A stretch of DNA of 64,000 nucleotides, from NCBI GenBank assembly GCA_964349125.1, contig CAYGFH010000001.1, positions 133,408 through 197,407 on the forward strand, written 5' to 3'. The DNA comes from an uncultured Gammaproteobacteria bacterium. Its GTDB lineage: Bacteria; Patescibacteriota; Microgenomatia; UBA10105; UBA927. The notes beneath the pieces were generated by a model. It did no database searches. It saw only the letters and a list, made by a program, of their open reading frames with translations, and had not been told where the DNA came from. Made by a program: the position numbers and the translations under genes. Within the stretch, counting starts at the first letter, position 1; every line of letters begins with the position of its first letter. This document shows positions 9,233 through 64,000 of this stretch, one piece after another.

Positions 9233-9237
9233 ATACG

Positions 9238-13739: not shown

Positions 13740-13741
13740 AC

Positions 13742-22868: not shown

Positions 22869-22877
22869 AATACGTCC

Positions 22878-26203: not shown

Positions 26204-26349
26204 ATTCTTACATCACGCTTCTCGCTTGGAATTAGTCCTCCTACGCCGCTTTGAATAGAATAGTACCGCGGCATAAAGAGCCATACGCTCAACGCACAGC
26301 ATTGCCGTTTACGCACGAGCTCTTAAATAGTATCATATTACTATTACTC
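26204..26349. promoter_or_regulatory. Divergent intergenic region between the minus-strand gene block and the plus-strand island. It presumably carries promoters in both directions.
   Basis: A 146-bp non-coding gap if the YfhO-like gene starts at ATG 26350. AT-rich -10-like hexamers are present (TAGTAT, TTAAAT) but there is no clean consensus. Confidence 0.3.
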
Positions 26350-35605: not shown

Positions 35606-35612
35606 ATAAAAA

Positions 35613-48240: not shown

Positions 48241-48961
48241 GCTTCCATGGCCGCTGCCAGAATAACCTCAGTAATCCCTCAATATCCCCCTGTGCAGTTT
48301 TTACAACCCGCACAGTTGAACCGGGATTATCTATCCATGTGACGTGTTCCTCGTATATCCGGAACCCCAGTTTTTCAGCAATGATTAACAGTTCACTGTC
48401 AAAGAACCATTCATCATCCTTCACAAGCGGCAGTATTTTTTTTGCGGCATCATCGCGAATCGCTTTAAATCCGCACTGGGCATCGGAAAACTGTACCCAA
48501 AAAATACTCTTGATCATCAGTATGTACGCTTTTGACGTTATGGTGCGAAGTAAGCTTCTCCCGTAGACTCGGGATCCCTGGGAATTTCGTGAACCGATCG
48601 CGATGTCATATCCGCGGATAAGGGAACGTACAAGTCCGGGAAGGTGTTTCAAGTCCGTGGACAAATCTATATCCATATAGCAGTGGATATCCGCCGGTGT
48701 TTGTAACCATGCCGCCTTTACCGCACGTCCGCGTCCTTTTTGTTTCAGGTGTAGTACGGATACTTCCTTATATTTTTTTGAAAGCTTTTGCGCAGCTTTC
48801 AATGTGCCATCCGTCGATGCGTTATCAGCGATGGTGATGCCCCAGGAAAAATCCGTAAGATCACTCTTGAGAAAACGGATCAGCGTTTCTGTATGATCTG
48901 CCAATTCTTCCTCTTCGTTATACACCGGAAGAACGATATTAAGTTTTGTTTTTTTGTCCAT
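48227..48961 (-). CDS. Family 2 glycosyltransferase. Likely a polyprenol-phosphate sugar synthase (DPM1/GtrB-like).
   Basis: LNIVLPVYNEEEEL...ITIADNASTDGT...MDIDLSTD. 244 aa. Confidence 0.8.
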   Translation of the reverse strand: MDKKTKLNIVLPVYNEEEELADHTETLIRFLKSDLTDFSWGITIADNASTDGTLKAAQKLSKKYKEVSVLHLKQKGRGRAVKAAWLQTPADIHCYMDIDLSTDLKHLPGLVRSLIRGYDIAIGSRNSQGSRVYGRSLLRTITSKAYILMIKSIFWVQFSDAQCGFKAIRDDAAKKILPLVKDDEWFFDSELLIIAEKLGFRIYEEHVTWIDNPGSTVRVVKTAQGDIEGLLRLFWQRPWKRATL

Positions 48962-50621
48962 AGAACAATAACCCTCCTAATAATAATATCGTCATTATAC
49001 TAATTATTTCACCTTGAGATTTAGCGGCAGTATTCTTATACTCCATGACCACCGTGTGGCTGCCTTCTTTCAGAGATATAGCCGGCAATCCACGTATAAT
49101 AGCAGGTTTTTCCTCCACGTCATCAACCCAGAATTTCCATCCCGGTATGTAGGCTTTCTGTATTAACATCGTGTGCTCTGTGTCATGTGACACAGAGATA
49201 CTGGCGTAGGTTGCGGTCCGTTTTTGTATGCTGATACTGGCTCCCGCTGTGGCTGATACCAGTGTGGTCGGGACTTCAGCCAGGCTTTTTGGTTTCAAAA
49301 TGGTGGATGGCAGGTATTCATCTGAGATCTTCGAGACACGAAACAGCAGATCTTCCGATGTATTGAGCATTTTCCTGTCAGGTTCATAGATATAGTTCGG
49401 CACAAAATTTTTTGCATTTACATAGATAGTCAGCCCTATCAATACCGCTAACACAGCGTACCTCGCCGGTTTCGAACGAAAACCCGTCATCACATACGCA
49501 CCTAATCCTCCCAGGGCAAACATTGCGACGGTTAACAGTCGCCATGGGTACTGGATAAATGATGTAAACGGAAGCAGTTTCCAAAACGGCTCCGACACGG
49601 GAAGCATACCTAGGATAGTCAGAATCAAAACAGCCAGTGATACCAGATAGAGCACCCCGCTTGTGCGAGTTCGTCGGTATCTCTGGTACAAAAACAGGAG
49701 GACAGACACAAGAGCAAACAGAATATGCAGCTTGCCAAGTTTAAATGACATCCCATCCTGAATACATCCTGCTGATGATCCCCCAAATCCCCATGGGGAA
49801 TTCCATAACTGGGTAGCACACAGGAAATGATCATAAAACCCTGTTTGCGCCGACTGTATCATCGCGGTAACTGATGTGGTATTCATTTCCAAAAACGCCG
49901 GGAGCCAGAAAAATGCACTAAGCCCCATTCCAAACATAACCACTGCAAAACAGTGTACGAATACGTGTATATGCACGTTACGTGCGATCAACTGCCTAAT
50001 ACACTCGGCCACAATGCACAGGAAAAAAATGAGTAGCGTTAATACACCGAGTATGGTATGGGAAAGAAATATTGCCGCCAGTCCTATGCTTCCCAGAAAT
50101 ATACCCGCATACGTGTTTTTCGCTCTGATACTGATAATTCCCAGTACGAATAATGGCAAAAAAGCAGCTGCCCAGAATTCTCCCACGGAGCCGCGAATGT
50201 AGAGCTGTACTGCGTGGTATGGAGCATATGAAAAAATGACAGAACCGACTACTGCCGACAATACACCGTACTGTGATGCAAAAAGTATAAAACTCAGTGC
50301 AGCGGCAAGCACAAATCCGAGCATAAACATGATTTTTGTGGCTACATAGGCATCGACACCCAGCGCGTACAGTGTGCCGCCCGCATAATACGGCAACGGA
50401 GAATAATATGCGAAGATCGGGTATCCCAATCCATATCCGAGGTGGTCAACCACACGAACCGGGAATTGCAGATCACGGATTGCGTCACCCATAGCGATCA
50501 CACGGGCAACCTGTGTGTCATCATGCATCGGGAAATAGCCGGTGCCAAACAGTGGGGACACTGCAAAGTACAGCAGGAGGACAGAAAGGATGAGTCCGAC
50601 AGTAAACTTCAGTGTGTTCAT
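48939..50621 (-). CDS. PTPS-related (PF10131-like) membrane protein, putative GT-C. Paralog 4 of 5.
   Basis: PMHDDTQVARVIAM...FPVRVVDHLGYGLGYPIFAYYSPLPYY and C-terminal KAYIPGWKFWVDD. Confidence 0.75.
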   Translation of the reverse strand: MNTLKFTVGLILSVLLLYFAVSPLFGTGYFPMHDDTQVARVIAMGDAIRDLQFPVRVVDHLGYGLGYPIFAYYSPLPYYAGGTLYALGVDAYVATKIMFMLGFVLAAALSFILFASQYGVLSAVVGSVIFSYAPYHAVQLYIRGSVGEFWAAAFLPLFVLGIISIRAKNTYAGIFLGSIGLAAIFLSHTILGVLTLLIFFLCIVAECIRQLIARNVHIHVFVHCFAVVMFGMGLSAFFWLPAFLEMNTTSVTAMIQSAQTGFYDHFLCATQLWNSPWGFGGSSAGCIQDGMSFKLGKLHILFALVSVLLFLYQRYRRTRTSGVLYLVSLAVLILTILGMLPVSEPFWKLLPFTSFIQYPWRLLTVAMFALGGLGAYVMTGFRSKPARYAVLAVLIGLTIYVNAKNFVPNYIYEPDRKMLNTSEDLLFRVSKISDEYLPSTILKPKSLAEVPTTLVSATAGASISIQKRTATYASISVSHDTEHTMLIQKAYIPGWKFWVDDVEEKPAIIRGLPAISLKEGSHTVVMEYKNTAAKSQGEIISIMTILLLGGLLFYGQKNKT

Positions 50622-52174
50622 GGTCTGTGTGTAGATGATGTTTTATGAAACAGCGCATGGAAGACCACAGGTGCACAGTAGTATACGAGGAAAAACAGTA
50701 TAGAAAACAGACTGATCATATCTGCCAGAAATCTGCTTTTTGTTTCCCTGAATTCCATAAAGAGTGTGTGAGTGCCTTCGAGTATCGGAATCTGCATAAC
50801 ACCAAGGTCATTGTTATATGCTATCGTTACCGGCTTATCATCCACCATTGCACCCCACCCCGGATAAAACAGACTGTTTATCTGCAGCAAACTGTTTTCA
50901 CTGGCGTCAATCGATACATGAACTCTATTTGTGTTTACTTCGATCGGCGTAATTTCGGCATTTCCCGTGAGAATTTCGATCCGCTTGTCAGCCCGGCGTG
51001 ACGGTATCACCGATACCCATCTGGGCATGTACTCATTGGCCACCGTTGTCGTTGCTTCGTTTGTACTGAAATACCCTTCCGGGTGTTCTATACTTTCCAC
51101 GTGTGCATACCCTGTGGCGTTATACCCAAACCATAGTATGGAAATAACTGCAATAAAAACCCCCAGTTTCTTGTATGAATCGGCTATATAGGAAATAAGC
51201 CAGGAACCGGCTACTAACCAAAACAAAAACAGGCGGTACGGAAATTGTATAAATAACTGCAGCGGTTTTAGGCTCCACAAAAAAGCACTGAGCTCACTGA
51301 TAAAAAATGCCCCGCCCACTACCAGTGCCGTAAACAATACCCTCTCCTTGTTATATTTTTTGGGTATCACAAACAGTAGTCCTATGCCTATAATGGCAAC
51401 GGGCGCGTTTTTAACCAGAAGATCAAAGCTTGCCGGGAAATAATGTAACGGGTTTGAAACACCCACCGAGTCAAATAGTACGAACCGCTTTTCAAGAAGC
51501 GCCGGTATCCAAAAAAATGCGGCAATTCCAATTGCTGAAAGTGTCGGCAACACAAACGATCGATCTTTCCGTATGTGCATGAGAGACACGAGGATCATGA
51601 GGAAAAACATCGCTGCGGTATTGTGACTCACGAGCATAAACGCGAGCATTGGGACGAACAGAAGTACATTTGCCGATTCGTACGCATGCAGTACACCGAA
51701 AAATGCAGATACCGCGACAACCTCACCGATTGATCCCCTCGTAAACACATCATACAGAAGATATGGATTGAGTATAAACGCAAGACTTCCCAGGAAACTG
51801 CCGAGCGAAGAAAAGTATTTCTTGAGCCATAAAAACAGAAAAACCACAGAACTTGTGACAGATCCGATCAGGATAATTTCTATAGAGGACCTGAATGAAA
51901 ATCCAATCAGATGCAGAACCGATCCGACGTACAAAAATCCCGGATACAAAAAATTTGCGACAGGGTATCCGTAGCTGTGATTCAGCCTGCCGAGTAACCG
52001 TACGGGAAATTGCCCATCACGTAAGCTCTGGTAAAACGCGGAAAGCCTGATAATCATCCAGTTTGCGTCGTCCGTTACGATGAATCCCGCACGGAAAATC
52101 GGAGCCAGCACGAAACTAAGCACGGCAAGAAGGAGCACCAGCCAAACACCGTACTGAATAAATGCACGTTTCAT
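50618..52174 (-). CDS. PTPS-related (PF10131-like) membrane protein, putative GT-C. Paralog 5 of 5, tandem to paralog 4.
   Basis: IVTDDANWMIIRLSAF...FPVRLLGRLNHSYGYPVANFLYPGFLY and C-terminal SLFYPGWGAMVDD. Confidence 0.7.
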   Translation of the reverse strand: MKRAFIQYGVWLVLLLAVLSFVLAPIFRAGFIVTDDANWMIIRLSAFYQSLRDGQFPVRLLGRLNHSYGYPVANFLYPGFLYVGSVLHLIGFSFRSSIEIILIGSVTSSVVFLFLWLKKYFSSLGSFLGSLAFILNPYLLYDVFTRGSIGEVVAVSAFFGVLHAYESANVLLFVPMLAFMLVSHNTAAMFFLMILVSLMHIRKDRSFVLPTLSAIGIAAFFWIPALLEKRFVLFDSVGVSNPLHYFPASFDLLVKNAPVAIIGIGLLFVIPKKYNKERVLFTALVVGGAFFISELSAFLWSLKPLQLFIQFPYRLFLFWLVAGSWLISYIADSYKKLGVFIAVISILWFGYNATGYAHVESIEHPEGYFSTNEATTTVANEYMPRWVSVIPSRRADKRIEILTGNAEITPIEVNTNRVHVSIDASENSLLQINSLFYPGWGAMVDDKPVTIAYNNDLGVMQIPILEGTHTLFMEFRETKSRFLADMISLFSILFFLVYYCAPVVFHALFHKTSSTHRP

Positions 52175-52214
52175 ACCCTCTGTTAGATGACTCCTCGAAA
52201 TTCAATGTGTATCA

Positions 52215-53729
52215 TTATTTTTTCTCAGACTGAGCAGGACGGATTTTATACAAGCGGATGTGAGATTTTTCGTTGTGGGCCTTTCGTATTTCCATCACCA
52301 TATCCATCGGCCAATCAGGTTTTTCCTGTGTGAGGTTGGTTATATAGTACGTCGATTTGCTCTTGGATTTTTCGGCGATGTAGTCTGGTATGGTTTTGGA
52401 TGGCGGCCATACGCCGTGAATTTCAATCTTTTTATTCTGGTGGAGATATATCTCAAGCGCATACGGTAGCAGTCCGAATGTGCCTTCGGTATATACAGCA
52501 ATTTCTTCGCCGGTGGATTTTTCACTAAGCAGACTCACTATTTCTTTCACTCCCCATCCTGACGGCCAGTCATTTATAAGCTGTCCGATGTCAGATTTGG
52601 GAATAAAGGCGCGGGACACATCTGTGAGAATCGTGCCGGACATATACAGTGCCTGGAGACAACAGAGTATGACTATGGCGAATTTCTGATACTGCTTCGA
52701 CGCGTAGGCGGTGAGCCGTTCAACAGTTACTGCAGTAAGGATAAGGATAGGCATGGCCATCGGTAGGAGGTATCGCGCGTAGAGCACTTTTCCAAACAGG
52801 GCAAGCGCAACAAACGGCAATATCCACCAGATAATAAGCACTATTTTTTCTTTCAGTTTCCCCCGCACGAGTACGAAAGATAATATAGCCAATACGCACC
52901 AGGAAATTGTCACATAATTGATAAACCAATCTGACATGCCATATAAATTTCCGACAAAAAATGTAAACGGATGCGTGATCCACTCTTTAAATGGATACAC
53001 AAATATAGTATTTTTCTGGGCGATAATATAGAAATACGGAGAGAGCCGGAGGATACTGTACAGCACCTGGGACAACACTGTCGCCACTACAGAAAGCCCT
53101 ACCCACGACCACAGGCGTTTTTTCAGATTTTGCTTCCTCCAATCAAACAGTACAAGCGTGAAAGGCTGTAAATACAAGCTCAAAAATCCCGAACTTTTAT
53201 TCAGCATTCCAAGAGCCAGTGACATTCCGAAAATCAGTGCGATATCCAGCCGTACATACCGCACAAGAAGTATCGCTATATATATATTCCATACGTACAG
53301 TGCGCTCGTCAGGGAATCATAAATCGCGAGCCTATCATACATGAGTGCAAACGGAGATACGAGATACAGGAAGCTGGATATAAGACCTAACCGTTTACTC
53401 TTAAATAGCTCATATCCGACGGCAAACATGCCCCACATCCCCAGTAAACCTGAAAATACCGATACCGTGCGCCCGGCAACGAGCGGATCTGATATGACAC
53501 GCAGTGCCGCCATCATAAACCATGTAAATAACGGCTGTTTCCCATCGGTTAACGATATGTACCGCCATGACGCATCAGTGGCGCCAATTTGCGACCAGCG
53601 AATGTAGATGGCCTCGTCCGTAAAAATCGGTAATGAGGTCAAATTATACAGTCTAACGCACACATAAAATACTGATAATACGAAGAGCCAAACAAATGCA
53701 TTTTTGAATACTTTTTTCATAGTGGACAT
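52215..53729 (-). CDS. ArnT/PMT-like (GT39/83-like) GT-C glycosyltransferase.
   Basis: A DE motif in the first loop (PIFTDEAIYIRWSQIG). 504 aa, polytopic. Confidence 0.7.
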   Translation of the reverse strand: MSTMKKVFKNAFVWLFVLSVFYVCVRLYNLTSLPIFTDEAIYIRWSQIGATDASWRYISLTDGKQPLFTWFMMAALRVISDPLVAGRTVSVFSGLLGMWGMFAVGYELFKSKRLGLISSFLYLVSPFALMYDRLAIYDSLTSALYVWNIYIAILLVRYVRLDIALIFGMSLALGMLNKSSGFLSLYLQPFTLVLFDWRKQNLKKRLWSWVGLSVVATVLSQVLYSILRLSPYFYIIAQKNTIFVYPFKEWITHPFTFFVGNLYGMSDWFINYVTISWCVLAILSFVLVRGKLKEKIVLIIWWILPFVALALFGKVLYARYLLPMAMPILILTAVTVERLTAYASKQYQKFAIVILCCLQALYMSGTILTDVSRAFIPKSDIGQLINDWPSGWGVKEIVSLLSEKSTGEEIAVYTEGTFGLLPYALEIYLHQNKKIEIHGVWPPSKTIPDYIAEKSKSKSTYYITNLTQEKPDWPMDMVMEIRKAHNEKSHIRLYKIRPAQSEKK

Positions 53730-53786: not shown

Positions 53787-54956
53787 TCAATGCGTACGCC
53801 GTCTTCTATATCCCATATACAGGACACTCAACACTGAGACCGCAATCGGTATAGCGGTAACCCAGAGTTTGACAGCGGGAGCAGGATCATTCCAGTGACC
53901 CAGATACAGGTACGGCACATATCGCAGCAGTAAGCCCATGGATACACCGAACGATAACACAGCCACTCTCGGGTACTCAGGTACGAGTGCAACGAACGGA
54001 ACTATCCAGACCCAATACCAGCTCAAGACTTCCCGTTGAAATAGCACGGCTATAAACCCGAGAATCATCCCTCCCAGGGCAATTTTTCTGTTCCATTTGA
54101 AGAAAAACGCAGGGATAAGGAAAATCGTCATAAGTTTCATGGCGATGGAAACAGACAGGACAAACCAAGACGCCCATTTCTGTGAATTTCGGTATAGCAC
54201 AAGTGACCATACGGCTATCGCCATCATGACGATATCGTTATGGGGACTTATAAGGCACTCAACTAAAACAAGTGGGTTGAGTGAAAATATCACAGTTCCC
54301 GCCCGGACTAGTGACGCGTTTTTACCCTGTAGTGCCCTCTCAATCCCTAGGATGGTGAGAAGGTAAAACAGCCCGATATACAGCTTGAAGTTAACAATAA
54401 GAAGTAGTAGTTTCCCGAATCCAAAAAGATACGGCACCAGTGTGGACACTATCCATAGGGGTGTGTAGGCGCTCGGCAAGTGAGTCCAATGCATGAACGA
54501 CAGCCATGGATCCACACCCGTAAACTGCAGCGGTATAACCTCGTAAGGATTTTTATGATATATGAGTACCGTTTTTGCCGTAAACAGATAATTGAAAAAG
54601 TCGTAGGAAAATGCGGGAAATGCGGCAAGTGAAACACCCCAGATGAGAATCACAATACTCCAAAACTGTTTCCGGGAAACCTTTCCCTGGTAGGCCAGTC
54701 GAATCATGCTCCCGTATAACACAAACAGCGGCAATAGTATCCCGATATAAAGAGATGCGGAAAGTGGCCTGTTAAAGAATCCGATTGACTGAAACTGTCT
54801 TTGGATCGCTCCGACAACACTTGACTGAGAGAGCGTTAACCCCAGGTCAATCTGAGTATACGAGTACAATACAAACAGGAGAAGCACCAGAGCGTATAGT
54901 GCTGCGAGAGTACCCGATTGCAGATAACTCAATCCTGCTTTATTTTTCTGTACCAT
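53787..54956 (-). CDS. Polytopic membrane protein, DUF2029/GT87-like candidate GT-C. Paralog of 17046..18194.
   Basis: FSYDFFNYLFTAKTVLIYHKNPYEVIP. Start uncertain (54956 or 54974). Confidence 0.6.
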   Translation of the reverse strand: MVQKNKAGLSYLQSGTLAALYALVLLLFVLYSYTQIDLGLTLSQSSVVGAIQRQFQSIGFFNRPLSASLYIGILLPLFVLYGSMIRLAYQGKVSRKQFWSIVILIWGVSLAAFPAFSYDFFNYLFTAKTVLIYHKNPYEVIPLQFTGVDPWLSFMHWTHLPSAYTPLWIVSTLVPYLFGFGKLLLLIVNFKLYIGLFYLLTILGIERALQGKNASLVRAGTVIFSLNPLVLVECLISPHNDIVMMAIAVWSLVLYRNSQKWASWFVLSVSIAMKLMTIFLIPAFFFKWNRKIALGGMILGFIAVLFQREVLSWYWVWIVPFVALVPEYPRVAVLSFGVSMGLLLRYVPYLYLGHWNDPAPAVKLWVTAIPIAVSVLSVLYMGYRRRRTH

Positions 54957-55701
54957 AGCGACCCCTCCACGCATACATGCGTATGGTGAGAATATCCGAA
55001 ATACCCTGGATGGTGTCTTTAATCGGGTTTACTCTGCGGGTCTCCACATAATGCCACTCAACAGGAACTTCACGAATGACAAACCCAAGAATTTTGGCGA
55101 CAAAGAGTAATTCTATATCAAATCCAGCAGTCACCATAGCGCCGCTCACATGTTTAGACTGTCCGTATATAGACAGGTGCGCTATGATTCGATGCGCTGC
55201 TTTTTTCTTAAATGCCTTAAATCCGCACTGAGTGTCGGAAATACCATGTAAGCCCAAAATTACAGTACGCAGAAACATAAATCCCCGTGCCATAATTTTT
55301 CGAAGTAGCGGCGCACCTTCCCGTTTCCCCTGCCTTGAGCCTATTACCACATCCACACCTTTTTCAAACCACGGAAGCACCTGTTCCAATTCCTTAAGCG
55401 GCGTGGCCTGGTCTAGGTCAGAGAACAGTATGATCGATCCGTTTGCCTGCTTGAGCCCTGTCACCACTGTTGCCGCTTTTCCCTGATGCGGATTTTTGAC
55501 TATCGTGAATCCTTTATTTTCGTGAGCGAAATCCTCGATTAACGTGACGCTGGCATCAGAAGAGCCGTCATCAATTATGAGAACCTCCCAGGTATAGGAC
55601 TGCTTATTGAGGTAGCGTGCAACTTTTTCAAGGGCGCCCAACCTGATATTTGTTTCTTCATTGTACGATGGAATGATTACAGATAAATATGGTTCTTTCA
55701 T
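54940..55701 (-). CDS. Family 2 glycosyltransferase. Likely a polyprenol-phosphate sugar synthase (DPM1/GtrB-like).
   Basis: LSVIIPSYNEETNI...LIIDDGSSDAS...SDLDQ. 253 aa. Confidence 0.85.
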   Translation of the reverse strand: MKEPYLSVIIPSYNEETNIRLGALEKVARYLNKQSYTWEVLIIDDGSSDASVTLIEDFAHENKGFTIVKNPHQGKAATVVTGLKQANGSIILFSDLDQATPLKELEQVLPWFEKGVDVVIGSRQGKREGAPLLRKIMARGFMFLRTVILGLHGISDTQCGFKAFKKKAAHRIIAHLSIYGQSKHVSGAMVTAGFDIELLFVAKILGFVIREVPVEWHYVETRRVNPIKDTIQGISDILTIRMYAWRGRYGTEK

Positions 55702-55702
55702 A

Positions 55703-57247
55703 TTACTTTTCTTCGGTGTACTTCACTAATTTATAAATTTTTACCACAGATACGTCCCACTTTCCTGCAATTTCCGCTCTACCGAATCCGGAAATTTCCC
55801 ACAGTGAATGCCCAAGCGGTTCGCAGTTGGTATCCTCACACACAACCAGCAACTGGTCAGTCACTGTTTTGCGCTCCGAATCATTTGCTGCATTTTCTAT
55901 GACCACGGGCGGGCGTCCCCAAATTTCAAAAAAATATCTGTACGCATGATCTGAGTTTCCTCCGGTGACGAGGGCAAAGTTAAATGGTTTTCCATCAGTT
56001 TTATCCAGTACGGCACGTGCTATAGTTTTTGCCTGATTTAACTGACGGTTTGGTTCATGTAAAAATGGCCTGCCCTGCCAGTTAAAAATAATGATGAGAG
56101 TGAAGGCTAGAGCTGCAACACATTTCCCGATTTTACCCCGAGTCCATACTGCCCAAAACAACAGTGCGGTAAATAGAAATGGAACGATAAAAAATATGCC
56201 GAAATAATAATCGTAAATCGACTTCTTATAGATTCCAAATAGACACAGGCCGGAAGCGACCCACAGGTATAACAGGAGTAACATATCCCGCTGACGCTTT
56301 GTAAACTGACCTTTGTACCAAAAAATCATAGGCACCAGCGTTGCAGTAATGGCAGTTGCCCATGTACCGATCGTCCACACCTGTTTTTGGTACGCAGTCA
56401 GTTTATCAAACATTCCCCCATCAGGTATCCGAAGGATCAATCGCCCAAAGAGGCGGAAAAATACATCACGTATGTTCCACACAAAATGGCTTGCTGAAAA
56501 TCCGGTGTCCTTCCCTGCAAGTACAAACTCCATAATGCCTTTTGTGTTTGTAAACTCATGTCTGAATTCGAATGCTACAAATGGAGAAAAGCCGGCCAGA
56601 AATCCAATGATACTGTACCCGATACCTTTGAGAGACTCCATCTTCAGGCGCAGTATCATCCAGATATATACGACGGGAAACAGAAACAAAAATGTGTAGT
56701 GCAGTTGTATACCTATACCCATAATCACCCCTATCCAAAATGCCAGAGATAATTTTTTGCTTTCGGTAAACCTGAAGCAGAGATAGATTAGTGCTGTGGA
56801 GAAAAATGGTACTAGGTTAGGATTCCACGAGGACCGCGAATATGCGATTACCAGAGGTGACAACGCGTAGATAGCCGCCGCGGTAATAGCCACAAACCTG
56901 CCGAAAAAATCCAGTCCCATTTTATAGAGCAGATAGATGGTAGCCACTCCTACGAGAGCAACCATAATCGCGGGGCCAACAGGGTCCAGTTTGGCTGCCC
57001 AGAGAAACGGCAGCATGAAATAGTAGTAGATCGGGCCCATATAAAATCCGCCTACTGACGCGGTCGGGCCAAGGAGAGTGAATTTACCGTCAACTATCAT
57101 GCGTTTCACAACCAAGACATCGCGCCCTTCGTCTCCGAGAAACGTCAGATAATCGCCAATTCGATATAACCGCAAATAAGCACCGATCAGTAATATCGAA
57201 ATAAGAGGAATAGCACTTGTGTATATTCGACGAAGGAACGCTACCAT
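55703..57247 (-). CDS. ArnT/PMT_2-like polytopic membrane glycosyltransferase candidate (DxGRD subfamily).
   Basis: FLGDEGRDVLVVKRMIVDGKFTLLGPTASVGGFYMGPIYYYFMLPFLW. I prefer the ATG at 57247. The ORF track extends to 57304. Confidence 0.7.
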   Translation of the reverse strand: MVAFLRRIYTSAIPLISILLIGAYLRLYRIGDYLTFLGDEGRDVLVVKRMIVDGKFTLLGPTASVGGFYMGPIYYYFMLPFLWAAKLDPVGPAIMVALVGVATIYLLYKMGLDFFGRFVAITAAAIYALSPLVIAYSRSSWNPNLVPFFSTALIYLCFRFTESKKLSLAFWIGVIMGIGIQLHYTFLFLFPVVYIWMILRLKMESLKGIGYSIIGFLAGFSPFVAFEFRHEFTNTKGIMEFVLAGKDTGFSASHFVWNIRDVFFRLFGRLILRIPDGGMFDKLTAYQKQVWTIGTWATAITATLVPMIFWYKGQFTKRQRDMLLLLYLWVASGLCLFGIYKKSIYDYYFGIFFIVPFLFTALLFWAVWTRGKIGKCVAALAFTLIIIFNWQGRPFLHEPNRQLNQAKTIARAVLDKTDGKPFNFALVTGGNSDHAYRYFFEIWGRPPVVIENAANDSERKTVTDQLLVVCEDTNCEPLGHSLWEISGFGRAEIAGKWDVSVVKIYKLVKYTEEK

Positions 57248-57255
57248 AAATCGTA

Positions 57256-58371
57256 TTAAATGCGCCGTTTCCAAATAACTCTGGAATACATTATATAGTT
57301 CCAAATGAGACCGCAGAATATTCCGAACAGATAAAATATTCTGTATTCTGAAACTCCATACAGATGGGTCCCTATATGGACGCTTATGGCCTGCAGAGAT
57401 AATGCGCCTAGGGAGGTCATATTAAACTGGAGAAATTTATTTACCCGTTGGTCGCGACCTATTTTCCGATCCCTGAACGTCCATGAATTATTCAGTTTAT
57501 AGTTAGAAAGTATAGCAGCTTCAGCTCCAAACATGCTACCGATTGTGGGATGTAACCCGAAATACACCAATAACTCAAGAATTACCGTGTTTATAAGAAA
57601 CCCTATGGACCCCACGACCAGAAATTTTGAGAAACTATGTGCCAACACGTCATTCATCCGTGCCTTCCAGACGTATAGCATGACTTTTCGAATATATTCA
57701 GAAGGAACAATTTTCGATTTCCCAAAACGCCTGTCAGTGAAATGTATCGGAACCTCGGCAACCTTCGCACCTGCAAGAACCGATTTATGAAGAAATGCAA
57801 TTTGAAAGACATATCCGCTGTACTCTTCCACCTGAGTGTGAAGCTTTTCAAAATATACCTTATGAAACGCACGAAACCCACCTGTCCAATCATGAATTGA
57901 CGGTACACCTAGTCCAAACCTGACTATGGAGTTTGCGACGATGCTGAATATTTTCCGGTGTATCCCCCAGTTATCCGGTATAGATCCGCCTTTTATGTAC
58001 CGACATCCCACCACAAAATCTGACCCTTTGCTTAACGCCTGCAAAAATTTTGGAATTACTTTGGGGTCGTGTGACAAATCCGCATCCATTTGGAGTATAT
58101 ACTCGGCTTCCATCTTCTCAACCGCGTACGTCATACCACGAAGTAATGCTTTGCCTAATCCTTCTTTGGAACCGCTCAGCAGAAACACATCTTTGTATTT
58201 TTTCTGATACTCGCCCACTACGTCACGGGTTCCGTCCGGTGAGGTATCATCAACGACCAGATAGCGTATGGAATATTCCTTGATATCACCAAGGATCTCA
58301 CGCAGCATATCCAACAGTCGTATGATATTGTCCCTCTCGTTGTATGTAGGGAGAATGATGACCAGTTTCAT
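57256..58371 (-). CDS. Polyprenol-phosphate sugar synthase (GT2, DPM1-like) fused to a C-terminal GtrA-like membrane domain.
   Basis: N-terminus MKLVIILPTYNERDNI...LVVDDTSPDGT...MDADLSHDP. C-terminus with about 4 TM segments (KFLVVGSIGFLINTVILELLVYF...LSNYKLNNSWTF), typical of the GtrA family. Confidence 0.8.
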   Translation of the reverse strand: MKLVIILPTYNERDNIIRLLDMLREILGDIKEYSIRYLVVDDTSPDGTRDVVGEYQKKYKDVFLLSGSKEGLGKALLRGMTYAVEKMEAEYILQMDADLSHDPKVIPKFLQALSKGSDFVVGCRYIKGGSIPDNWGIHRKIFSIVANSIVRFGLGVPSIHDWTGGFRAFHKVYFEKLHTQVEEYSGYVFQIAFLHKSVLAGAKVAEVPIHFTDRRFGKSKIVPSEYIRKVMLYVWKARMNDVLAHSFSKFLVVGSIGFLINTVILELLVYFGLHPTIGSMFGAEAAILSNYKLNNSWTFRDRKIGRDQRVNKFLQFNMTSLGALSLQAISVHIGTHLYGVSEYRIFYLFGIFCGLIWNYIMYSRVIWKRRI

Positions 58372-58385
58372 ATGAGCCACGTGTC

Positions 58386-59342
58386 CTATACTCTCTCGCG
58401 CCAATAGTTGAGGAGATCTTCCATTGTTTGTTTGAATGGCACGTTTGGCTTCCATCCTGTTTTGGTGACAAATTTACTGTTATCACCCAGAAGCACTGGT
58501 ACATCGCTTGGTCTCATGCGCGCTGGATCCGGCTTTATCTCGACTTTCACTTTGGACATGGAGAGCAACATATCAAGCATATCTCCTATTTTGATTGTTG
58601 TTCCTGTGCATATATTGTACACGTCACCCGGATCACACTTCTCTACAGCCAACAAGTATGCTGCTACCATATCTCGTACGTCTGTGTAGTCCCGTGTCGC
58701 ATCGAGGTTTCCCACATGGATGATAGGTTCCTGCTTTCCCTTTTCGATCATGGCGATTTGCTTCGCAAAATTTGATTCTGCAAACGTATCTCCACGCCGT
58801 GGACCTGTGTGGTTGAATCCCCGTGTTCTGATAATTCGTTCTTTATAGGATTGGTAATACTGGTACCCCAGATAGTCCATCGCGACTTTTGATACCGCAT
58901 ATGGGCTCAAAGGTCGAAGTGGGTTTGTCTCTTTTATTGGCACTTCATTTTCATATACCATTCCATATTCTTCTGAAGAACAGGCAATTTGGATTACAGG
59001 ATCAATCCCGGCCATTCGCACTGCTTCAAACAAATTGGCGGATCCGACGATGTTTACCTCAAGGGTTACAGAAGGTGATACCCAGGATGTAGGCACAAAT
59101 GATTGTGCGGCCAAATGGAACACGTAATCCGGCTTTATGCGGGACATAGTTGAATACATACTGTGCGTATCCATAAGATCCGCATCTTCCAGGTGTAATT
59201 TGTTTATGATTGATTCAATATGATCAGTCTTACTGCGGGGACGAACAAATCCGTACACTTCATACCCTTTGGACAGCAAAAGCTCCGCGAGATGACTTCC
59301 AACAAATCCGGCTATACCACTGATAAATGCTTTTTTTTGCAT
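58386..59342 (-). CDS. NAD(P)-dependent sugar-nucleotide 4,6-dehydratase/reductase of the Gmd/Rmd family.
   Basis: ISGIAGFVGSHLAELLLSKGYEVYGFVR, HLAAQSFV and GNLDATRDYTDVRD motifs. A GGAGG SD lies 4 nt upstream of the ATG. Confidence 0.8.
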   Translation of the reverse strand: MQKKAFISGIAGFVGSHLAELLLSKGYEVYGFVRPRSKTDHIESIINKLHLEDADLMDTHSMYSTMSRIKPDYVFHLAAQSFVPTSWVSPSVTLEVNIVGSANLFEAVRMAGIDPVIQIACSSEEYGMVYENEVPIKETNPLRPLSPYAVSKVAMDYLGYQYYQSYKERIIRTRGFNHTGPRRGDTFAESNFAKQIAMIEKGKQEPIIHVGNLDATRDYTDVRDMVAAYLLAVEKCDPGDVYNICTGTTIKIGDMLDMLLSMSKVKVEIKPDPARMRPSDVPVLLGDNSKFVTKTGWKPNVPFKQTMEDLLNYWRERV

Positions 59343-59366
59343 AACACCTCCAAAAAATCAATACGT

Positions 59367-60665
59367 TTACATCCGTCCTACACCATAATACACAAATCCG
59401 TGTTGTTTTACACGCGTAGGATCATACACATTTCTCCCGTCAAATAATACGGGATTCTTGCATTTCTTTGCAAGGGAAGATAAATCAAGCTGTCTGAATT
59501 CATTCCATTCTGTCACTACCGCGACCGCATCCGCGCCATCTGCAGCTTCATATGGATTAGTGGCAAATACCACTGATTCAGGTAATACGCGTTTTGAATT
59601 ATCCATTGCCACAGGATCGTACGCTACAACCGTTGCTCCCGCTTTTATGAGTGAATCTATGATAATTACGGATGGTGCATCGCGCATGTCATCCGTATTA
59701 GGCTTAAATGACAATCCCAGCACCGCAATCCGCTTGCCCTTCAGATTATTGTCAAAATGTGTGACTATCTTTTGAATGAAGTGCTCTGACGCCTGTTTAT
59801 TTACCTCGTCTACGGCTTTTAACAGAGTGAAATCATACCCATGTTCCCCAGCAATTGCGATAAGTGCTTTCACATCCTTCGGAAAACAGCTTCCGCCATA
59901 CCCAACACCGGGATATAGGAAACTTCTGCCAAGCCGTTTATCTAGACCCACGCCCTCGAGTACGTGTTCCACATCTGCACCCACCTTCTCGGCAATAAAC
60001 GCGATGGCGTTAGCAAATGATATTTTGGTTGATAAGAGAGAATTACTTGAGTATTTTATAAGTTCAGCGGTTTCGACATTTGTCAGTACTAATTTCCCTC
60101 CAATGGGTTTATGCAATTCCGAAAGTAAGTCTTTCGCTTTTTCGGATGTGGAACCTATCACTACGCGTTCCGGGTGGAGCGTGTCAGATATAGCTGTACC
60201 TTCCCGAAGGAACTCAGGTACAGAGGCGATATCAAATGTCGAGTCTGGTCGTTTGTTCGCCCGAAGGATCTCAGAAACTTTCTGATTAGTTCCGGGAGGA
60301 ACGGTACTTTTCGTTACAACAACTTTATATCCTGACAGTTCGGCAGCGATACTTTTTGCAGCCTCAAATACATTTGTGAGATTGGCTTCTCCGGTTGGCA
60401 TCGGAGGAGTTCCAACGCAAATAAACACGATGGAGGATGGGGTAACAGCGTCTTTATATGAAAGGGTAAAAATAAGCCTGCCAGCATCTACGTTTCGCTT
60501 CACAAGTTCAGCGAGTCCCGGCTCGAAAAACGGTGCGATTCCCTGTTTTAATTTTTCTATTTTTTCTTTTGTGCGTCCGACAACCCATACCGTATTTCCC
60601 AGATCGGCAAATACTGCTGCTGTAACCAAACCTACATATCCATGACCAACAAATGTTATAACCAT
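59367..60665 (-). CDS. ugd: UDP-glucose 6-dehydrogenase family (nucleotide-sugar dehydrogenase).
   Basis: N-terminal FVGHGYVGLVTAAVFADLGN Rossmann fold, the catalytic GGSCFPKDV motif, 432 aa. Confidence 0.9.
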   Translation of the reverse strand: MVITFVGHGYVGLVTAAVFADLGNTVWVVGRTKEKIEKLKQGIAPFFEPGLAELVKRNVDAGRLIFTLSYKDAVTPSSIVFICVGTPPMPTGEANLTNVFEAAKSIAAELSGYKVVVTKSTVPPGTNQKVSEILRANKRPDSTFDIASVPEFLREGTAISDTLHPERVVIGSTSEKAKDLLSELHKPIGGKLVLTNVETAELIKYSSNSLLSTKISFANAIAFIAEKVGADVEHVLEGVGLDKRLGRSFLYPGVGYGGSCFPKDVKALIAIAGEHGYDFTLLKAVDEVNKQASEHFIQKIVTHFDNNLKGKRIAVLGLSFKPNTDDMRDAPSVIIIDSLIKAGATVVAYDPVAMDNSKRVLPESVVFATNPYEAADGADAVAVVTEWNEFRQLDLSSLAKKCKNPVLFDGRNVYDPTRVKQHGFVYYGVGRM

Positions 60666-60703
60666 AATAAAAATAGGGACGCATACCTACTCGCTCGGCG
60701 TCC
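60666..60703 (-). terminator. Terminator-like or attenuator hairpin plus U-tract between rfbD and ugd.
   Basis: On the minus strand, GGACGC-(15 nt loop)-GCGTCC is followed by CUAUUUUUAUU directly before the ugd ATG. The large loop lowers confidence. Confidence 0.25.
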
Positions 60704-60737
60704 AAGCATTATAGTATCATAATTTATATTTTTCTGC

Positions 60738-61604
60738 TTATGATTCCTGCGATTTCACTTCCTTGATTCCATCCAAAAACGAGCGTGGGGTGAATCCCAA
60801 TCGCTGAATTTTTTGCTGTGTCAAAACAGCATATTGTGGCGCGGGTGCCCGATCCTTAAACATTTGGGCAAATGTTGTCTTGTGAATCAAAGATTCGCTC
60901 AGTCCGAACACCTCTGCTATAGAGATAGCCGCTTCATACGGGGATATCGCAGTGGATGAAACCACGTGGTATATACCGCTGGCATTTTCCCTGACCAACA
61001 CATCCATAGCACGTGCCAAATCATCTATAAATGTCGGGACAAATTGCTGATCGTCAGGAGCGGTAATTTCCAACCCCTGCTGTAGCCTTTCAAGCATCTT
61101 ATGAACAAAGTCTTTTTTCCCTACCGGATGTGCTCTATAGGGATTCGATATTCTGATGATAAGTCCGTTTTCTCCAAGTGAACTGACGCGCTTGGCGCCC
61201 TCAGTCTTCGTAATTGCGTACCATCCGAGAGGATTTGTCGCTGCGTCTTCGTCATACGGTCCGTTTTTCCCATCAAACGCGTAATCAGTGTCTATATACA
61301 CGAGACGTTTGTTGAATTTTTTGCAATTTGCCACTATGTTTTCCGTTGCAAGGACATTCACTTTCCATGCTGCGCTGTTTTCTTGTAATTCACGTTCTTT
61401 TTCCGCTCCTTGTACATCGGTATAGGCTGCAAGGTGAAACACCCAAAGGGCATCGGATTTTTGGAAGTAAGAATCCACATCATCCTTCTTGGTAATGTCT
61501 ATACCGTTTTCCAGGCTCAGATTCTGAAACGTCATATGGTCACCCAACAGGGCGACAAGTCTGGTTCCTACGAGTCCCGAAAGGCCTGTTCCCAGTATAT
61601 TCAT
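60738..61604 (-). CDS. rfbD: dTDP-4-dehydrorhamnose reductase.
   Basis: 288 aa, N-terminal ILGTGLSGLVG, in the RmlD family. It is the last gene of an rml block and overlaps rfbB by 4 bp. Confidence 0.85.
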   Translation of the reverse strand: MNILGTGLSGLVGTRLVALLGDHMTFQNLSLENGIDITKKDDVDSYFQKSDALWVFHLAAYTDVQGAEKERELQENSAAWKVNVLATENIVANCKKFNKRLVYIDTDYAFDGKNGPYDEDAATNPLGWYAITKTEGAKRVSSLGENGLIIRISNPYRAHPVGKKDFVHKMLERLQQGLEITAPDDQQFVPTFIDDLARAMDVLVRENASGIYHVVSSTAISPYEAAISIAEVFGLSESLIHKTTFAQMFKDRAPAPQYAVLTQQKIQRLGFTPRSFLDGIKEVKSQES

Positions 61605-62617
61605 GTCGTACCTCCATACTGCTTTTTATAATATGACGCATATTCACCTGACTTAATCCTCTTCCACCATGATTCATGAGAGATAAACCAATCAATGGTG
61701 CGTGACAGATACGTATCAAAATCATGTTGTGGGGACCAGCCAAGCTCTGTGTGGATCTTCGTCCAATTCATGGCGTACCGCCTGTCATGTCCAGGTCTAT
61801 CCGTGACAAATTCAATACTGGACTCATCTTTTTTCATATAGGCAAGAATTTTGCGAACGAGGGTTATATTATCCACATCCTCTGTCATGCCGCCTATGCA
61901 ATATGTTTCTCCAATTGTGCCGTTTTGCAGTATGACATCTATTGCACGGCAATGATCCTCCACGTACAACCAATCACGGACATTTTTCCCGTCACCGTAT
62001 ACCGGAACTTTTTTTCCCTCTATGAGGTTTGTGATGGCAAGAGGGATTAATTTTTCTGGAAAATGAAACGGTCCGAAGTTGTTTGAGCAGTTCGTGATGG
62101 TAACAGGCAAACCGTAGGTGTGGTAATACGCCCGCACCAAATGATCCGACGCAGCCTTACTTGCCGAGTACGGACTTCTGGGATCATACGGAGTACTCTC
62201 TTGAAATTTATCCTGACTCTCAAGTGCAAGTGATCCGAATACCTCGTCTGTGGACACGTGGTGGAACCGTTTGACCTTGTGCCGCAAGGCCGCATCCAAG
62301 AGTACCTGTGTGCCTACCACATTGGTATGGATGAATGGAAACGGCTCCGCGATAGACCGGTCTACATGGCTTTCCGCAGCAAAATGCACGACTATATCCA
62401 CATCCTTCATTGCCAAATCCATAGCGGCGCTGTCTGTGATGTCAGCGTGCAGGAATCGATATTTTTCCAATGAAGATACAGTCTCCAAATTCTCCAGATT
62501 TCCGGCATAGGTGAGGGCATCCACATTTACTATTGAATCGTCAGGATGCGCTCCCATCCAGTAGAGAATGAAATTTGATCCGATAAACCCAGCGCCACCG
62601 GTAACAAGAAGCTTCAT
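61601..62617 (-). CDS. rfbB: dTDP-glucose 4,6-dehydratase.
   Basis: MKLLVTGGAGFIGSNF...VNVDALTYAGN...HVSTDEVFG...YSASKAASDHL is the RmlB signature. The ORF track start at 62662 is probably too early. Confidence 0.9.
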   Translation of the reverse strand: MKLLVTGGAGFIGSNFILYWMGAHPDDSIVNVDALTYAGNLENLETVSSLEKYRFLHADITDSAAMDLAMKDVDIVVHFAAESHVDRSIAEPFPFIHTNVVGTQVLLDAALRHKVKRFHHVSTDEVFGSLALESQDKFQESTPYDPRSPYSASKAASDHLVRAYYHTYGLPVTITNCSNNFGPFHFPEKLIPLAITNLIEGKKVPVYGDGKNVRDWLYVEDHCRAIDVILQNGTIGETYCIGGMTEDVDNITLVRKILAYMKKDESSIEFVTDRPGHDRRYAMNWTKIHTELGWSPQHDFDTYLSRTIDWFISHESWWKRIKSGEYASYYKKQYGGTT

Positions 62618-62619
62618 AG

Positions 62620-63096
62620 TTAGGTAATATTTGTATTGGTGATTGGCATACCATCCACCCAATCATACCCTATCTCAGCGTCATTGTAGGGAATTCTGCC
62701 TTCTTCATCTTTAGAATAAACGCCACTCGTTACGTACACTAAATCAGCAGGTCCTTTCATAACCTTCAGGCCATGTGCAACCCCAAACGGAATCTTGAGC
62801 ACCAAATTTGGTCCACTTTCGGTGTTTAACATGAACTCATTGGTTTCTTTATACGTTGGAGAATCCTTGCGTGCGTCATACACGACAGCCTTCACTACAC
62901 CCTGGGCGACATACCACCAGTCAATTTGAGTTTTGTGTATGTGCCATGCTTTCACCACACCCTGATGCATAAATGAGTGTGAAACCTGCGCGAACCCTTC
63001 GGCAAAAAATTCATCGGTTTTTCTGATCATTTCTTCGAAGTATCCCCGCTCGTCAGGATGGCGGACTAATTCTTTTATTTGGACACCGGCTATCAT
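62620..63096 (-). CDS. rfbC: dTDP-4-dehydrorhamnose 3,5-epimerase.
   Basis: 158 aa. HPDERGYFEE and WHIHK motifs in a cupin fold, as in RmlC. Confidence 0.85.
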   Translation of the reverse strand: MIAGVQIKELVRHPDERGYFEEMIRKTDEFFAEGFAQVSHSFMHQGVVKAWHIHKTQIDWWYVAQGVVKAVVYDARKDSPTYKETNEFMLNTESGPNLVLKIPFGVAHGLKVMKGPADLVYVTSGVYSKDEEGRIPYNDAEIGYDWVDGMPITNTNIT

Positions 63097-63830
63097 AGTT
63101 CCCCTTTCTTTACCTTTTGGGCGACATCATTATTGGCAAACAGCAATTCATCATATGATGTTCCAGCATCTACCCACCAATCGATTACCTGGCAAGACAG
63201 GGTTCCATCCTTGAGATAGCAGTTATTCAAATCTGTGACCTCAAGCTCCTGTCGGTCTGATGGTTTGAGTGTACGAATATACTCAAACACTTTACTGTCA
63301 TACATATATATACCCGTCTGGGCTATATCTGATTTTGGATTTTCCGGCTTCTCCTCGATGGAAAGCACTTTGCCGTCAGGACCCATTTCGATAACACCGT
63401 ACTGTTTGGAATCAGTATCACGATGTATGCCAAATATCATGGCGCCTTGTTTGGTCGAGTCCATTTTTTCAACAGCACTTCGAAGATCAAAATTAAAGAT
63501 ATTATCACCCAGAATCACCAGAATCGGCTCATCATGCGCGAATTCTTCGGCGAGAGCTATAGCCTGTGCTATTCCGCCTTTGGGATTTTTCTGGATCGCG
63601 TAATACAGCTTTAGGTTAAACGCTTCTCCAGCACCCAATAGGTTGGCAAAATGGCCAGCATGATCAGGCGCTGTGGATAACAGTACCTCTGTCACACCCG
63701 CTTTTTTCATAGCCTCGAGTGGATAGTAAATCATTGGCTTATGATATATAGGAAGTAAATGCTTGTTCGTAACGAGGGTAAGCGGCTGTAACCGCGTTGC
63801 CATACCTCCGGCTAAAATAACACCTTTCAT
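63093..63830 (-). CDS. rfbA: Glucose-1-phosphate thymidylyltransferase.
   Basis: MKGVILAGGMATRLQPLT...KHLLPIY, the RmlA N-terminus. A GGAGG SD lies 7 nt upstream of the ATG at 63830. The ORF track start at 63887 is too early. Confidence 0.9.
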   Translation of the reverse strand: MKGVILAGGMATRLQPLTLVTNKHLLPIYHKPMIYYPLEAMKKAGVTEVLLSTAPDHAGHFANLLGAGEAFNLKLYYAIQKNPKGGIAQAIALAEEFAHDEPILVILGDNIFNFDLRSAVEKMDSTKQGAMIFGIHRDTDSKQYGVIEMGPDGKVLSIEEKPENPKSDIAQTGIYMYDSKVFEYIRTLKPSDRQELEVTDLNNCYLKDGTLSCQVIDWWVDAGTSYDELLFANNDVAQKVKKGEL

Positions 63831-63849
63831 AACGTAACCTCCTCTTTCT

Positions 63850-64000
63850 TCATGACCGAATAATTGTAGCGAGTAGCACAATGGCAATTGCGCCTATGAG
63901 CAGATATTCTATCACAATTCGGCGGTGAATACTGCGCTCAAGGATATGATGGATAATCCCCCAAAAGACATAGGATATGGAGACAACTATTCCGATTGCC
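63850..64000 (-). CDS. 3' end of a membrane protein gene that continues beyond the window. Only the C-terminal 50 aa are visible.
   Basis: Open frame on the minus strand ending at the TGA (63850-63852). The translation AIGIVVSISYVFWGIIHHILERSIHRRIVIEYLLIGAIAIVLLATIIRS is hydrophobic. It sits directly upstream of rfbA. Confidence 0.35.
   Translation of the reverse strand, partial: AIGIVVSISYVFWGIIHHILERSIHRRIVIEYLLIGAIAIVLLATIIRS

Follow-up and report, generated by a model that had tools for sequence, protein, structure and literature searches.

A 64-kb stretch of DNA (hereafter the window) from a member of Candidatus Gottesmanbacteria, a Microgenomates lineage of the Candidate Phyla Radiation (CPR), probably carries at 53.8–58.4 kb two modules for glycosylation with lipid-linked monosaccharides, set within a locus for a cell-envelope glycan that spans 64 kb or more. 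In module 1, the gene of a DPMS-type polyprenyl-phosphate glycosyltransferase (57256..58371) precedes that of an ArnT/PMT-like GT-C protein (55703..57247), and in module 2 the gene of a short DPM1/ALG5-like polyprenyl-phosphate glycosyltransferase (54940..55701) precedes that of an MptA/MptB (GT87)-like GT-C membrane protein (53787..54956). This reading builds on protein families, on folds and on the co-inheritance of both pairs, and from these we infer the enzymatic activities, the identity of the sugars, the acceptor, the proteins that flip the lipid-linked sugars and which GT-C takes which donor. Genes are named below by their lower coordinate; all genes of the pairs discussed here lie on the minus strand, on which the order from 58.4 to 53.8 kb runs from upstream to downstream.

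The two focal pairs and their co-inheritance

The 371-aa product of 57256 combines a GT2 domain (PF00535) with a GtrA/DPMS-type domain of four transmembrane (TM) helices (PF04138), and it aligns end to end, TM domain included, with the dolichyl-phosphate mannose synthase (DPMS) of Pyrococcus (PDB 5mlz; residues 1–367 vs. 23–372, E = 4.4e-42). Eight nucleotides further downstream (+8 nt) starts the 514-aa GT-C gene 55703, which scores 36.7 bits against PMT_2 and has thousands of homologs with an identity plateau at 55–60%. A sequence search of the PDB with 55703 returned nothing meaningful, and fold comparison alone was informative, for this protein only: for an AlphaFold2 (AF2) model built from 43 sequences (predicted local distance difference test score, pLDDT, 87; predicted TM-score, pTM, 0.88), the first 37 Foldseek matches in the PDB were all GT-C enzymes, with the best TM-score for ArnT (5f15, 0.61/0.59). 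These matches (AglB/STT3/PglB, ALG12/9/3, ArnT, Pmt4 and Emb) are users of lipid-phosphate-linked donors. Right after TM1, the family carries the motif FLGDEGRD, with an invariant D39 and nearly invariant E40 and D43; under the predicted loop topology, this is where the catalytic first loop of a GT-C enzyme would lie.

Module 2 begins 1 nt after 55703. Its synthase gene, 54940, encodes 253 aa with no TM domain, matches PF00535 with 95 bits, and has PgfS, ArnC and a dolichyl-phosphate (Dol-P) hexose transferase as its best NCBIfam models; searched alone against PDB sequences, it returns DPMS, ArnC and GtrB as its seven best matches, and some sources call its homologs dolichyl-phosphate beta-glucosyltransferase. 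Short polyprenyl-phosphate-sugar synthases of this kind, with no TM segment, are known elsewhere, e.g., human DPM1, Ppm1 and PpgS. The partner gene 53787 overlaps 54940 by 17 nt with the starts chosen in a preliminary description of the window (17–35 nt overall) and is assigned to PF26314 (MptA_B_family) in precomputed annotation. Its family membership is less strongly supported than that of 55703 (GT87 at E = 4e-4, below the cut-off; the MptA model at E = 7e-5; ~11 hydrophobic segments), and it has a paralog at 17046–18194 with which it shares residue D37.

The preliminary description had put forward a recurring pairing, about six times over, of small DPM1/GtrB-like GT2 genes with large GT-C genes. 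All six of its small genes match PF00535 above the cut-off, and we next classified these and every other GT2 by all-vs-all BLAST, NCBIfam rankings and profile searches against PDB sequences, on an inventory made by mechanical open reading frame (ORF) calling and Pfam across the whole window (13 PF00535 genes). Group A (57256, 54940, 48227, 13742 and 11702) finds DPMS of Pyrococcus furiosus (3e-41), ArnC (1e-24) and GtrB (1e-22), and its profile aligns over ~215–230 of 242 positions with DPMS and ArnC, vs. ~125 positions for the next PDB matches; that is, it covers the whole catalytic domain of DPMS/ArnC, whereas other GT2 structures align in the N-terminal nucleotide-binding half only. The DAD and DLD motifs of 57256 and 54940 align with the DAD motif of DPMS, and no clear TM helix is evident in the four short proteins (54940, 48227, 13742 and 11702). 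Group B (18854, 45872, 44201 and, more loosely, 8369) finds GmaR (7e-30), chondroitin synthase (3.4e-20) and SunS (8e-18), with a match to DPMS (2.6e-12) confined to the N-terminal ~100 aa, and group C (35613, 5584 and 44946) resembles chondroitin synthase, polypeptide N-acetylgalactosaminyltransferases (ppGalNAcT) and GlfT2. NCBIfam rankings agree with the split between A and B/C.

By sequence, the five group A proteins thus belong to the DPMS/GtrB/ArnC clade of polyprenyl-phosphate-sugar synthases, and they are predicted to have that activity. The synthase-like character claimed earlier holds for 54940, 57256 and 48227 and fails for the other three small genes, since 18854 and 8369 (GmaR/SunS-like) and 35613 (chondroitin-synthase/ppGalNAcT-like) resemble lipid-phosphate-sugar synthases only in the generic N-terminal nucleotide-binding half; two synthase-class genes, 13742 and 11702, had been overlooked. 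The other eight GT2s and the GT4s probably act in the cytoplasm as conventional Leloir enzymes and assemble a lipid-linked glycan.

Two side observations concern individual GT2s. In the group A alignment, 11702–12493 reads MDAGGD at the position of the D-x-D motif of the other four (DLD, DID, DAD and DAD), which may mean a changed or displaced metal-binding motif. For 18854, an AF2 model built from four paralogs was too poor to assign a class (pLDDT 62.7, below 50 in the C-terminal half), and its Foldseek ranking did not discriminate, with SunS first, DPMS, ArnC and GtrB close behind, and all TM-scores at 0.40–0.45.

Gene order in relatives supports the two focal pairs. One genome per GTDB species was scanned with an alignment of 55703, which yielded at least 491 candidate stretches, and the best 80 loci were examined. 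An ortholog of 57256 lies directly upstream of the 55703 ortholog in 72 of the 73 loci with enough sequence, which come from Gottesmanbacteria, Levybacteria and one Woesebacteria genome, and rml genes, a UDP-glucose dehydrogenase (UGDH) gene and one to three genes of short-chain dehydrogenases/reductases (SDRs) always precede this pair. The sugar-nucleotide genes are kept upstream of the module in both Gottesman- and Levybacteria, and in Levybacteria the recognisable module stops right after the 55703 ortholog, which suggests that the module 1 pair travels as a unit with its sugar-nucleotide genes. An ortholog of 54940 follows 55703 in 43 of 76 loci (the Gottesmanbacteria type), and in 42 of 42 loci an MptA/B-like GT-C gene comes after it. 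The two focal pairs are therefore co-inherited across many Microgenomates species; for the other four claimed pairs no specific pairing could be demonstrated. “Uncultured Gammaproteobacteria bacterium” is the title (TPA_asm records) given to many GTDB representative metagenome-assembled genomes in which this Microgenomates-specific block occurs, almost certainly in error.

A proposed donor-and-transferase scheme and its competitors

In the scheme that we favour, group A GT2s would charge polyprenyl phosphate, on the cytoplasmic face of the membrane, with a sugar taken from a nucleoside diphosphate, the flippase for the lipid-linked sugar would be either the GtrA-like domain in 57256 or a Wzx-type protein, and GT-Cs would hand the sugar to an extracytoplasmic acceptor, either a cell-wall polysaccharide or Ser/Thr-rich surface proteins. 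For module 1, 57256 would load the sugar and the ArnT-like 55703 would move it to the acceptor. For module 2, 54940 would make a second polyprenyl-phosphate-sugar, used by the translationally coupled 53787 and probably by the three GT-Cs encoded after it. Five donors would be shared by ~20 GT-Cs, a many-to-one arrangement as with Ppm1 in mycobacteria, and the GT4s and the group B and C GT2s would probably build in the cytoplasm a glycan linked to lipid diphosphate, to be exported by the Wzx proteins.

The flipping step finds some support in where the remaining group A genes lie. The third of these, 48227..48961 (minus strand, 244 aa, with PgfS, ArnC and Dol-P hexose transferase as best NCBIfam models), overlaps by 14 nt the downstream gene of a MOP/Wzx-family flippase, Wzx2 (46777..48240, minus strand, Polysacc_synt_3 at 179.6 bits), which matches models of MOP flippases and of an O-glycosylation flippase. 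The other two, 13742–14428 (AglJ at 116 bits, plus Dol-P hexose transferase, ArnC and PpgS) and 11702–12493 (PgfS, ArnC and PpgS), adjoin no GT-C and flank a second Wzx-like gene, Wzx1 (12480–13739, Polysacc_synt), on the minus strand at 11702..14428. Three of the five synthase-class GT2s thus directly adjoin the two Wzx genes, and these three adjacencies compare with 0.39 expected under random gene order (P about 0.002). It may be that Wzx proteins, and not GtrA, flip polyprenyl-phosphate-sugars here; a unit of synthase plus flippase would fit this adjacency, by analogy with known systems, with a GtrA-type domain fused to the fourth synthase, 57256. The GacI/GacK/GacL system is a precedent for a synthase that works with a Wzx-type flippase (10.1101/180810).

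Several observations weigh against this scheme. Conserved adjacency could reflect a frozen operon order alone, and within the window GT2 genes are not enriched next to GT-C genes, either overall (9 adjacencies observed vs. 9.7 expected under random order of the 51 genes, P ≥ 0.69) or in any GT2 subgroup. No standalone GtrA or GacJ-like small gene occurs in the window, where there is no second PF04138 gene and no gap above 143 nt, so that flipping for the short synthases is left unexplained; the only GtrA-type domain is the one fused to 57256. For the sugars, the NCBIfam scores of all GT2s are far below the equivalog cut-offs, and for the acceptor side, Pfam and hhalign are the only grounds for counting the PTPS-like, YfhO and Mpt-like paralogs as GT-Cs. 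Lastly, a gene pair outside the synthase class is also conserved: a GT-C lies directly upstream of the 18854 ortholog in 18 of 23 metagenome loci (11 of 12 among orthologs with at least 55% identity), which means either that conserved adjacency is a weak indicator of pairing or that a lipid-linked role of group B GT2s has gone unrecognised.

Among the alternatives, the one that fares best keeps the same chemistry and changes the acceptor: the GT-Cs, or many of them, would glycosylate Ser/Thr-rich surface proteins such as S-layer, pili or adhesins, in the manner of actinobacterial Pmt/Ppm1 or of streptococcal PgfS/PgfM, which is reportedly a precedent for such protein O-glycosylation. PgfS is the best NCBIfam model of 54940, 48227 and 11702, PMT_2/PMT families match several GT-Cs, and the match of Wzx2 to the O-glycosylation flippase model points the same way. 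On the other side, the rml genes, the GT4s and the DegT/acetyltransferase pair suggest a complex heteropolysaccharide, and PMT is not ranked above ArnT or oligosaccharyltransferases in the fold comparison. We consider this acceptor possible, though not likely.

It is also tempting to extend the donor-and-transferase scheme, and to speculate that in CPR of the Gottesmanbacteria type most of a complex surface glycan, or of a surface layer with heavy glycosylation, is built outside the membrane, with more than 20 GT-C paralogs fed by five donors in the style of arabinogalactan and lipoarabinomannan but evolved independently in a genome of ~1 Mb, and with Wzx/MOP proteins that flip polyprenyl-phosphate-monosaccharides. 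We hold this extension to be rather doubtful as it stands. In a bolder form of it, the GmaR/SunS-like group B GT2s, whose GT-C neighbour is kept across genomes, would be lipid-linked sugar synthases of a second class that has so far escaped notice.

A more conservative explanation is that the GT2s are ordinary cytoplasmic enzymes of a Wzx-dependent pathway, that the big membrane proteins are polymerases, ligases or other proteins than glycosyltransferases, and that their adjacency comes from operon packing and has no donor–acceptor meaning. Two Wzx genes, four GT4s and the sugar-nucleotide genes would suit such a pathway, as would the absence of adjacency enrichment and the lack of PDB sequence relatives for PTPS-like, YfhO-like and Mpt-like proteins. 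Yet the focal GT2s specifically match lipid-phosphate-sugar synthases, in the case of 57256 including the DPMS membrane domain, 55703 has an ArnT-like GT-C fold with a conserved acidic loop motif, and Pfam shows no priming phosphoglycosyltransferase, Wzy or Wzz in the window. This makes the conservative explanation improbable in our view.

The model of the preliminary description, in which each of six GT2/GT-C pairs is a dedicated donor-synthase/transferase unit for one sugar, starts from sound observations. Every gene concerned is an intact ATG-to-stop ORF at the coordinates given, the pairs are real and on the same strand, five of the six large partners are GT-C-like above the Pfam cut-off (PMT_2 for 55703, 33935 and 9238; PTPS_related for 48939 and 19618), with 53787 joining them through the weaker GT87/MptA_B matches, and the junctions are indeed tight or overlapping (+8, +1, −17, −23, −19, +7 and +5 nt). 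Gene order in relatives lends it something as well, with the conserved 18854/19618 adjacency (18/23) and a GT-C on the same strand after GT2 35613 in two of three relatives examined. However, such spacing is the norm in the window, where same-strand junctions mostly measure −4 to +9 nt, the adjacency equals the random expectation, and a count of about six dyads misses much of both classes, given 13 GT2s and ~20 GT-Cs, eight of the latter in an array (21279–33832) without any GT2. The GT2s 18854, 8369 and 35613 stand outside the DPMS/GtrB/ArnC clade, and neither of the synthase-class genes 13742 and 11702 adjoins a GT-C. In one related locus (L112), the ortholog of 9238 lies directly after that of the synthase-class 11702, which argues against a pairing of 8369 with 9238. 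Since there are five synthase-class GT2s for ~20 GT-Cs, a rule of one synthase per transferase cannot hold, a separate dyad for each sugar is not implied, and the six-unit model is very unlikely.

Relation to known glycosylation systems

The mechanism proposed for the two modules is not new: it is the three-component scheme (reviewed in PMC11127046) of the Gtr, Arn, CsbB/YfhO and Gac systems and of the mycobacterial Ppm1/GT-C systems. As in GtrA/GtrB/Gtr* systems (CsbB/GtcA/YfhO in Bacillus and Listeria, GacI/J/K/L in Streptococcus pyogenes), a GT2 of the polyprenyl-phosphate-sugar synthase class is clustered with GT-Cs, a candidate flippase element is at hand, either the GtrA-type domain fused in 57256 or, as with GacK, a Wzx-type gene beside 48227, 13742 and 11702, YfhO-family GT-Cs are present, and an rml operon accompanies them as in loci for rhamnose-rich cell-wall polysaccharides. 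Unlike these systems, the window has no standalone GtrA and combines five synthases and ~20 GT-Cs in one locus instead of one of each, in a CPR bacterium with a genome of ~0.8–1 Mb.

Individual components recall other systems. The 57256 protein has the length and architecture (GT-A plus a four-TM GtrA-like domain) of P. furiosus DPMS (5mlz), with the DAD metal motif aligned, and this is the architecture of the archaeal enzyme (PMC5526996); it differs in being bacterial and in having an ArnT/PMT_2-like GT-C as partner instead of the N-glycosylation machinery. Its sugar need not be mannose, because the gene is located downstream of rml genes, UGDH and a GMD/RMD-type SDR. In mycobacteria and corynebacteria, where Ppm1 serves MptA, MptB, PimE, Emb, Aft and Pmt, a few polyprenyl-phosphate-sugar donors likewise feed many GT-C paralogs and a glycan is built outside the membrane; 53787 and its paralog 17046 are MptA_B/GT87-like, and the short synthase without TM helix resembles Ppm1/PpgS. 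In contrast to those systems, the bacterium here is of an unrelated phylum, no decaprenyl-phospho-arabinose pathway is present, PTPS_related and YfhO proteins are prominent, and the resemblance to MptA is weak (E about 1e-4).

The ArnC/ArnT pathway is the closest parallel for the order of genes in module 1, with UGDH and an SDR followed by an ArnC-clade GT2 and an ArnT-like GT-C, and ArnT gives the best TM-score for 55703. Unlike that pathway, the site has no ArnA-type decarboxylase/formyltransferase, ArnB, ArnD, ArnE/F or deformylase, the SDR is GMD/RMD-like and not UXS/ArnA-like, and the only aminotransferase is 50 kb away. Lipid A synthesis is not known from CPR Microgenomates.

CPR (Patescibacteria) are mostly uncultured episymbionts, and as far as we know their surface chemistry is essentially unknown. 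What stands out here is, for a genome of ~0.8–1 Mb, the density of the locus, with more than 20 GT-C paralogs over 64 kb or more, and the lineage-wide conservation of the pair of a DPMS-like and an ArnT-like protein. In the searchable literature on CPR, Patescibacteria, Gottesmanbacteria or Microgenomates together with GT-C or glycosyltransferases, we found no description of such a density or of such a pair, which is not proof of absence. The conservation of the pair in Gottesman-, Levy- and Woesebacteria points to a conserved, and probably important, surface glycoconjugate, which could mediate host attachment or envelope integrity, and the DPMS-like/ArnT-like module offers concrete candidates for heterologous biochemistry.

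Composition of the surrounding locus

Broadly, the window is packed with 51 genes and hardly any intergenic DNA (widest gap 143 nt; GC content 41–48%), and at 64 kb or more the glycan locus takes up at least 8% of the ~0.8-Mb (809 kb) source contig, a metagenomic contig (ENA ERZ27247837 k141_2193826) of which the window reads the reverse complement. Several sources label close homologs of the encoded proteins as Candidatus Gottesmanbacteria, Microgenomates group or Patescibacteria. Besides the 13 GT2s, Pfam finds four GT4s and two Wzx/MOP flippases. The ~20 polytopic GT-C-like proteins (19–20 in the adjacency counts) fall by all-vs-all BLAST into five paralog families: PTPS_related (five), a PMT_2-like family “M1” (five), other PMT_2 (five), YfhO (three) and MptA_B/GT87-like (two). 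Sugar-nucleotide genes comprise rmlACBD, UGDH, two more SDRs, and a DegT aminotransferase with a NeuD-type acetyltransferase.

Most of the sugar-nucleotide genes form the head of the operon (58386..63887, minus strand), where Pfam identifies rmlA, rmlC, rmlB, rmlD, a UDP-glucose 6-dehydrogenase (527 bits against the TuaD model) and an SDR of the GMD/RMD family. This SDR (58386–59342) has GDP-6-deoxy-D-lyxo-4-hexulose reductase as its best PDB match (2pk3, E = 2.7e-84) and scores 34 bits with the ArnA model. We considered a role as UDP-glucuronic acid decarboxylase, i.e., an Arn/UXS reading with a polyprenyl-phosphate-pentose as product, and rejected it given that the best matches are to GMD/RMD and those to ArnA/UXS are weak. 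A GMD/RMD-like SDR between UGDH and 57256 makes an odd pairing with UGDH, and Levybacteria carry two or three SDRs at this place.

Downstream of module 2, a conserved block continues on the minus strand (48939..53729) with three GT-C-like genes assigned by Pfam and paralogy: a PMT_2 gene (52215–53729), a PTPS-like gene (50618–52174) and a PTPS_related gene (48939–50621), which are collinear in Gottesmanbacteria loci. The last of them is overlapped by 23 nt by the synthase-class gene 48227, and the whole eight-gene block down to Wzx2 is collinear in 30 of 55 loci. Among relatives, the conserved core runs from rmlA to GT2 35613 (35.6 kb), after which the number and kind of GT-Cs vary.

Three further GT2/GT-C neighbourhoods, all on the minus strand, complete the set from the preliminary description. 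At 18854..21282, a GT2 that the group B profile marks as GmaR/SunS/LgtF-like and outside the synthase class (18854–19636) overlaps the PTPS_related gene 19618–21282 by 19 nt. At 33935..36539, a chondroitin-synthase/ppGalNAcT-like GT2 (35613–36539; Glyco_tranf_2_3, NCBIfam and the group C profile) is followed after 7 nt by a PMT_2-type GT-C (33935–35605). At 8369..10560, Pfam, NCBIfam and BLAST identify a group B-like GT2 outside the synthase class (8369–9232) and, at a spacing of 5 nt, a PMT_2 GT-C (9238–10560). Next to the first of these, a conserved 189-aa protein (18318–18887) with one N-terminal hydrophobic segment and no Pfam or NCBIfam match follows the 18854 ortholog in 17 of 29 loci.

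Between these neighbourhoods lies an uninterrupted array of eight GT-C-like genes on both strands (21279..33832; weak PMT_2, M1, YfhO and PTPS_related members by Pfam and paralogy), with no GT2, GT4 or flippase gene inside. GT-C number and type after the 35613 ortholog differ among relatives, which hints at a portion of the glycan that is hypervariable and may be specific to strains. Metagenomic relatives also keep the gene order of the window's lower half, M1-M1-PMT_2-PTPS-GT2 (group B)-189-aa protein-Mpt-PTPS-GT4-GT2 (group A)-Wzx-GT2 (group A)-GT4.

Relationships among the GT-C-like families are uneven. By hhalign, the M1 family is related to the focal PMT_2 family with a probability of 97.8% and the PTPS-like family with 77.8%, while a relationship of the Mpt-like pair to the PMT_2 family was discarded at 1.9%. 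Proteins other than 55703 have 7–15 hydrophobic segments, and every family retains an invariant acidic residue near the start of the protein, e.g., D44 and E45 in M1 and D34 in PTPS; among PDB sequences, no relatives came up for the PTPS-like, M1 and Mpt-like profiles. YfhO proteins (26251–28779 and 38586–44189) and PTPS_related proteins have in common a C-terminal extracytoplasmic domain followed by a final TM helix (hhalign 96%, motif Y-x-P-G/N-W...DG), which indicates that GT-C families here come with modular C-terminal domains.

More large membrane proteins are encoded past position 1 of the window, and the locus thus extends beyond it. Large polytopic proteins with no Pfam match occupy 37–2427 and the 8910 nt of contig beyond; two of them, a 796/767-aa protein and a 722-aa paralog located at the window start and beyond, both carry the motif GGDDTRLYY after TM1, and the 722-aa paralog is weakly similar to the PTPS_related protein 19618 (5e-7). 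Judging by these sequence features, the proteins at the window start and beyond may be additional, very divergent GT-C-like enzymes.

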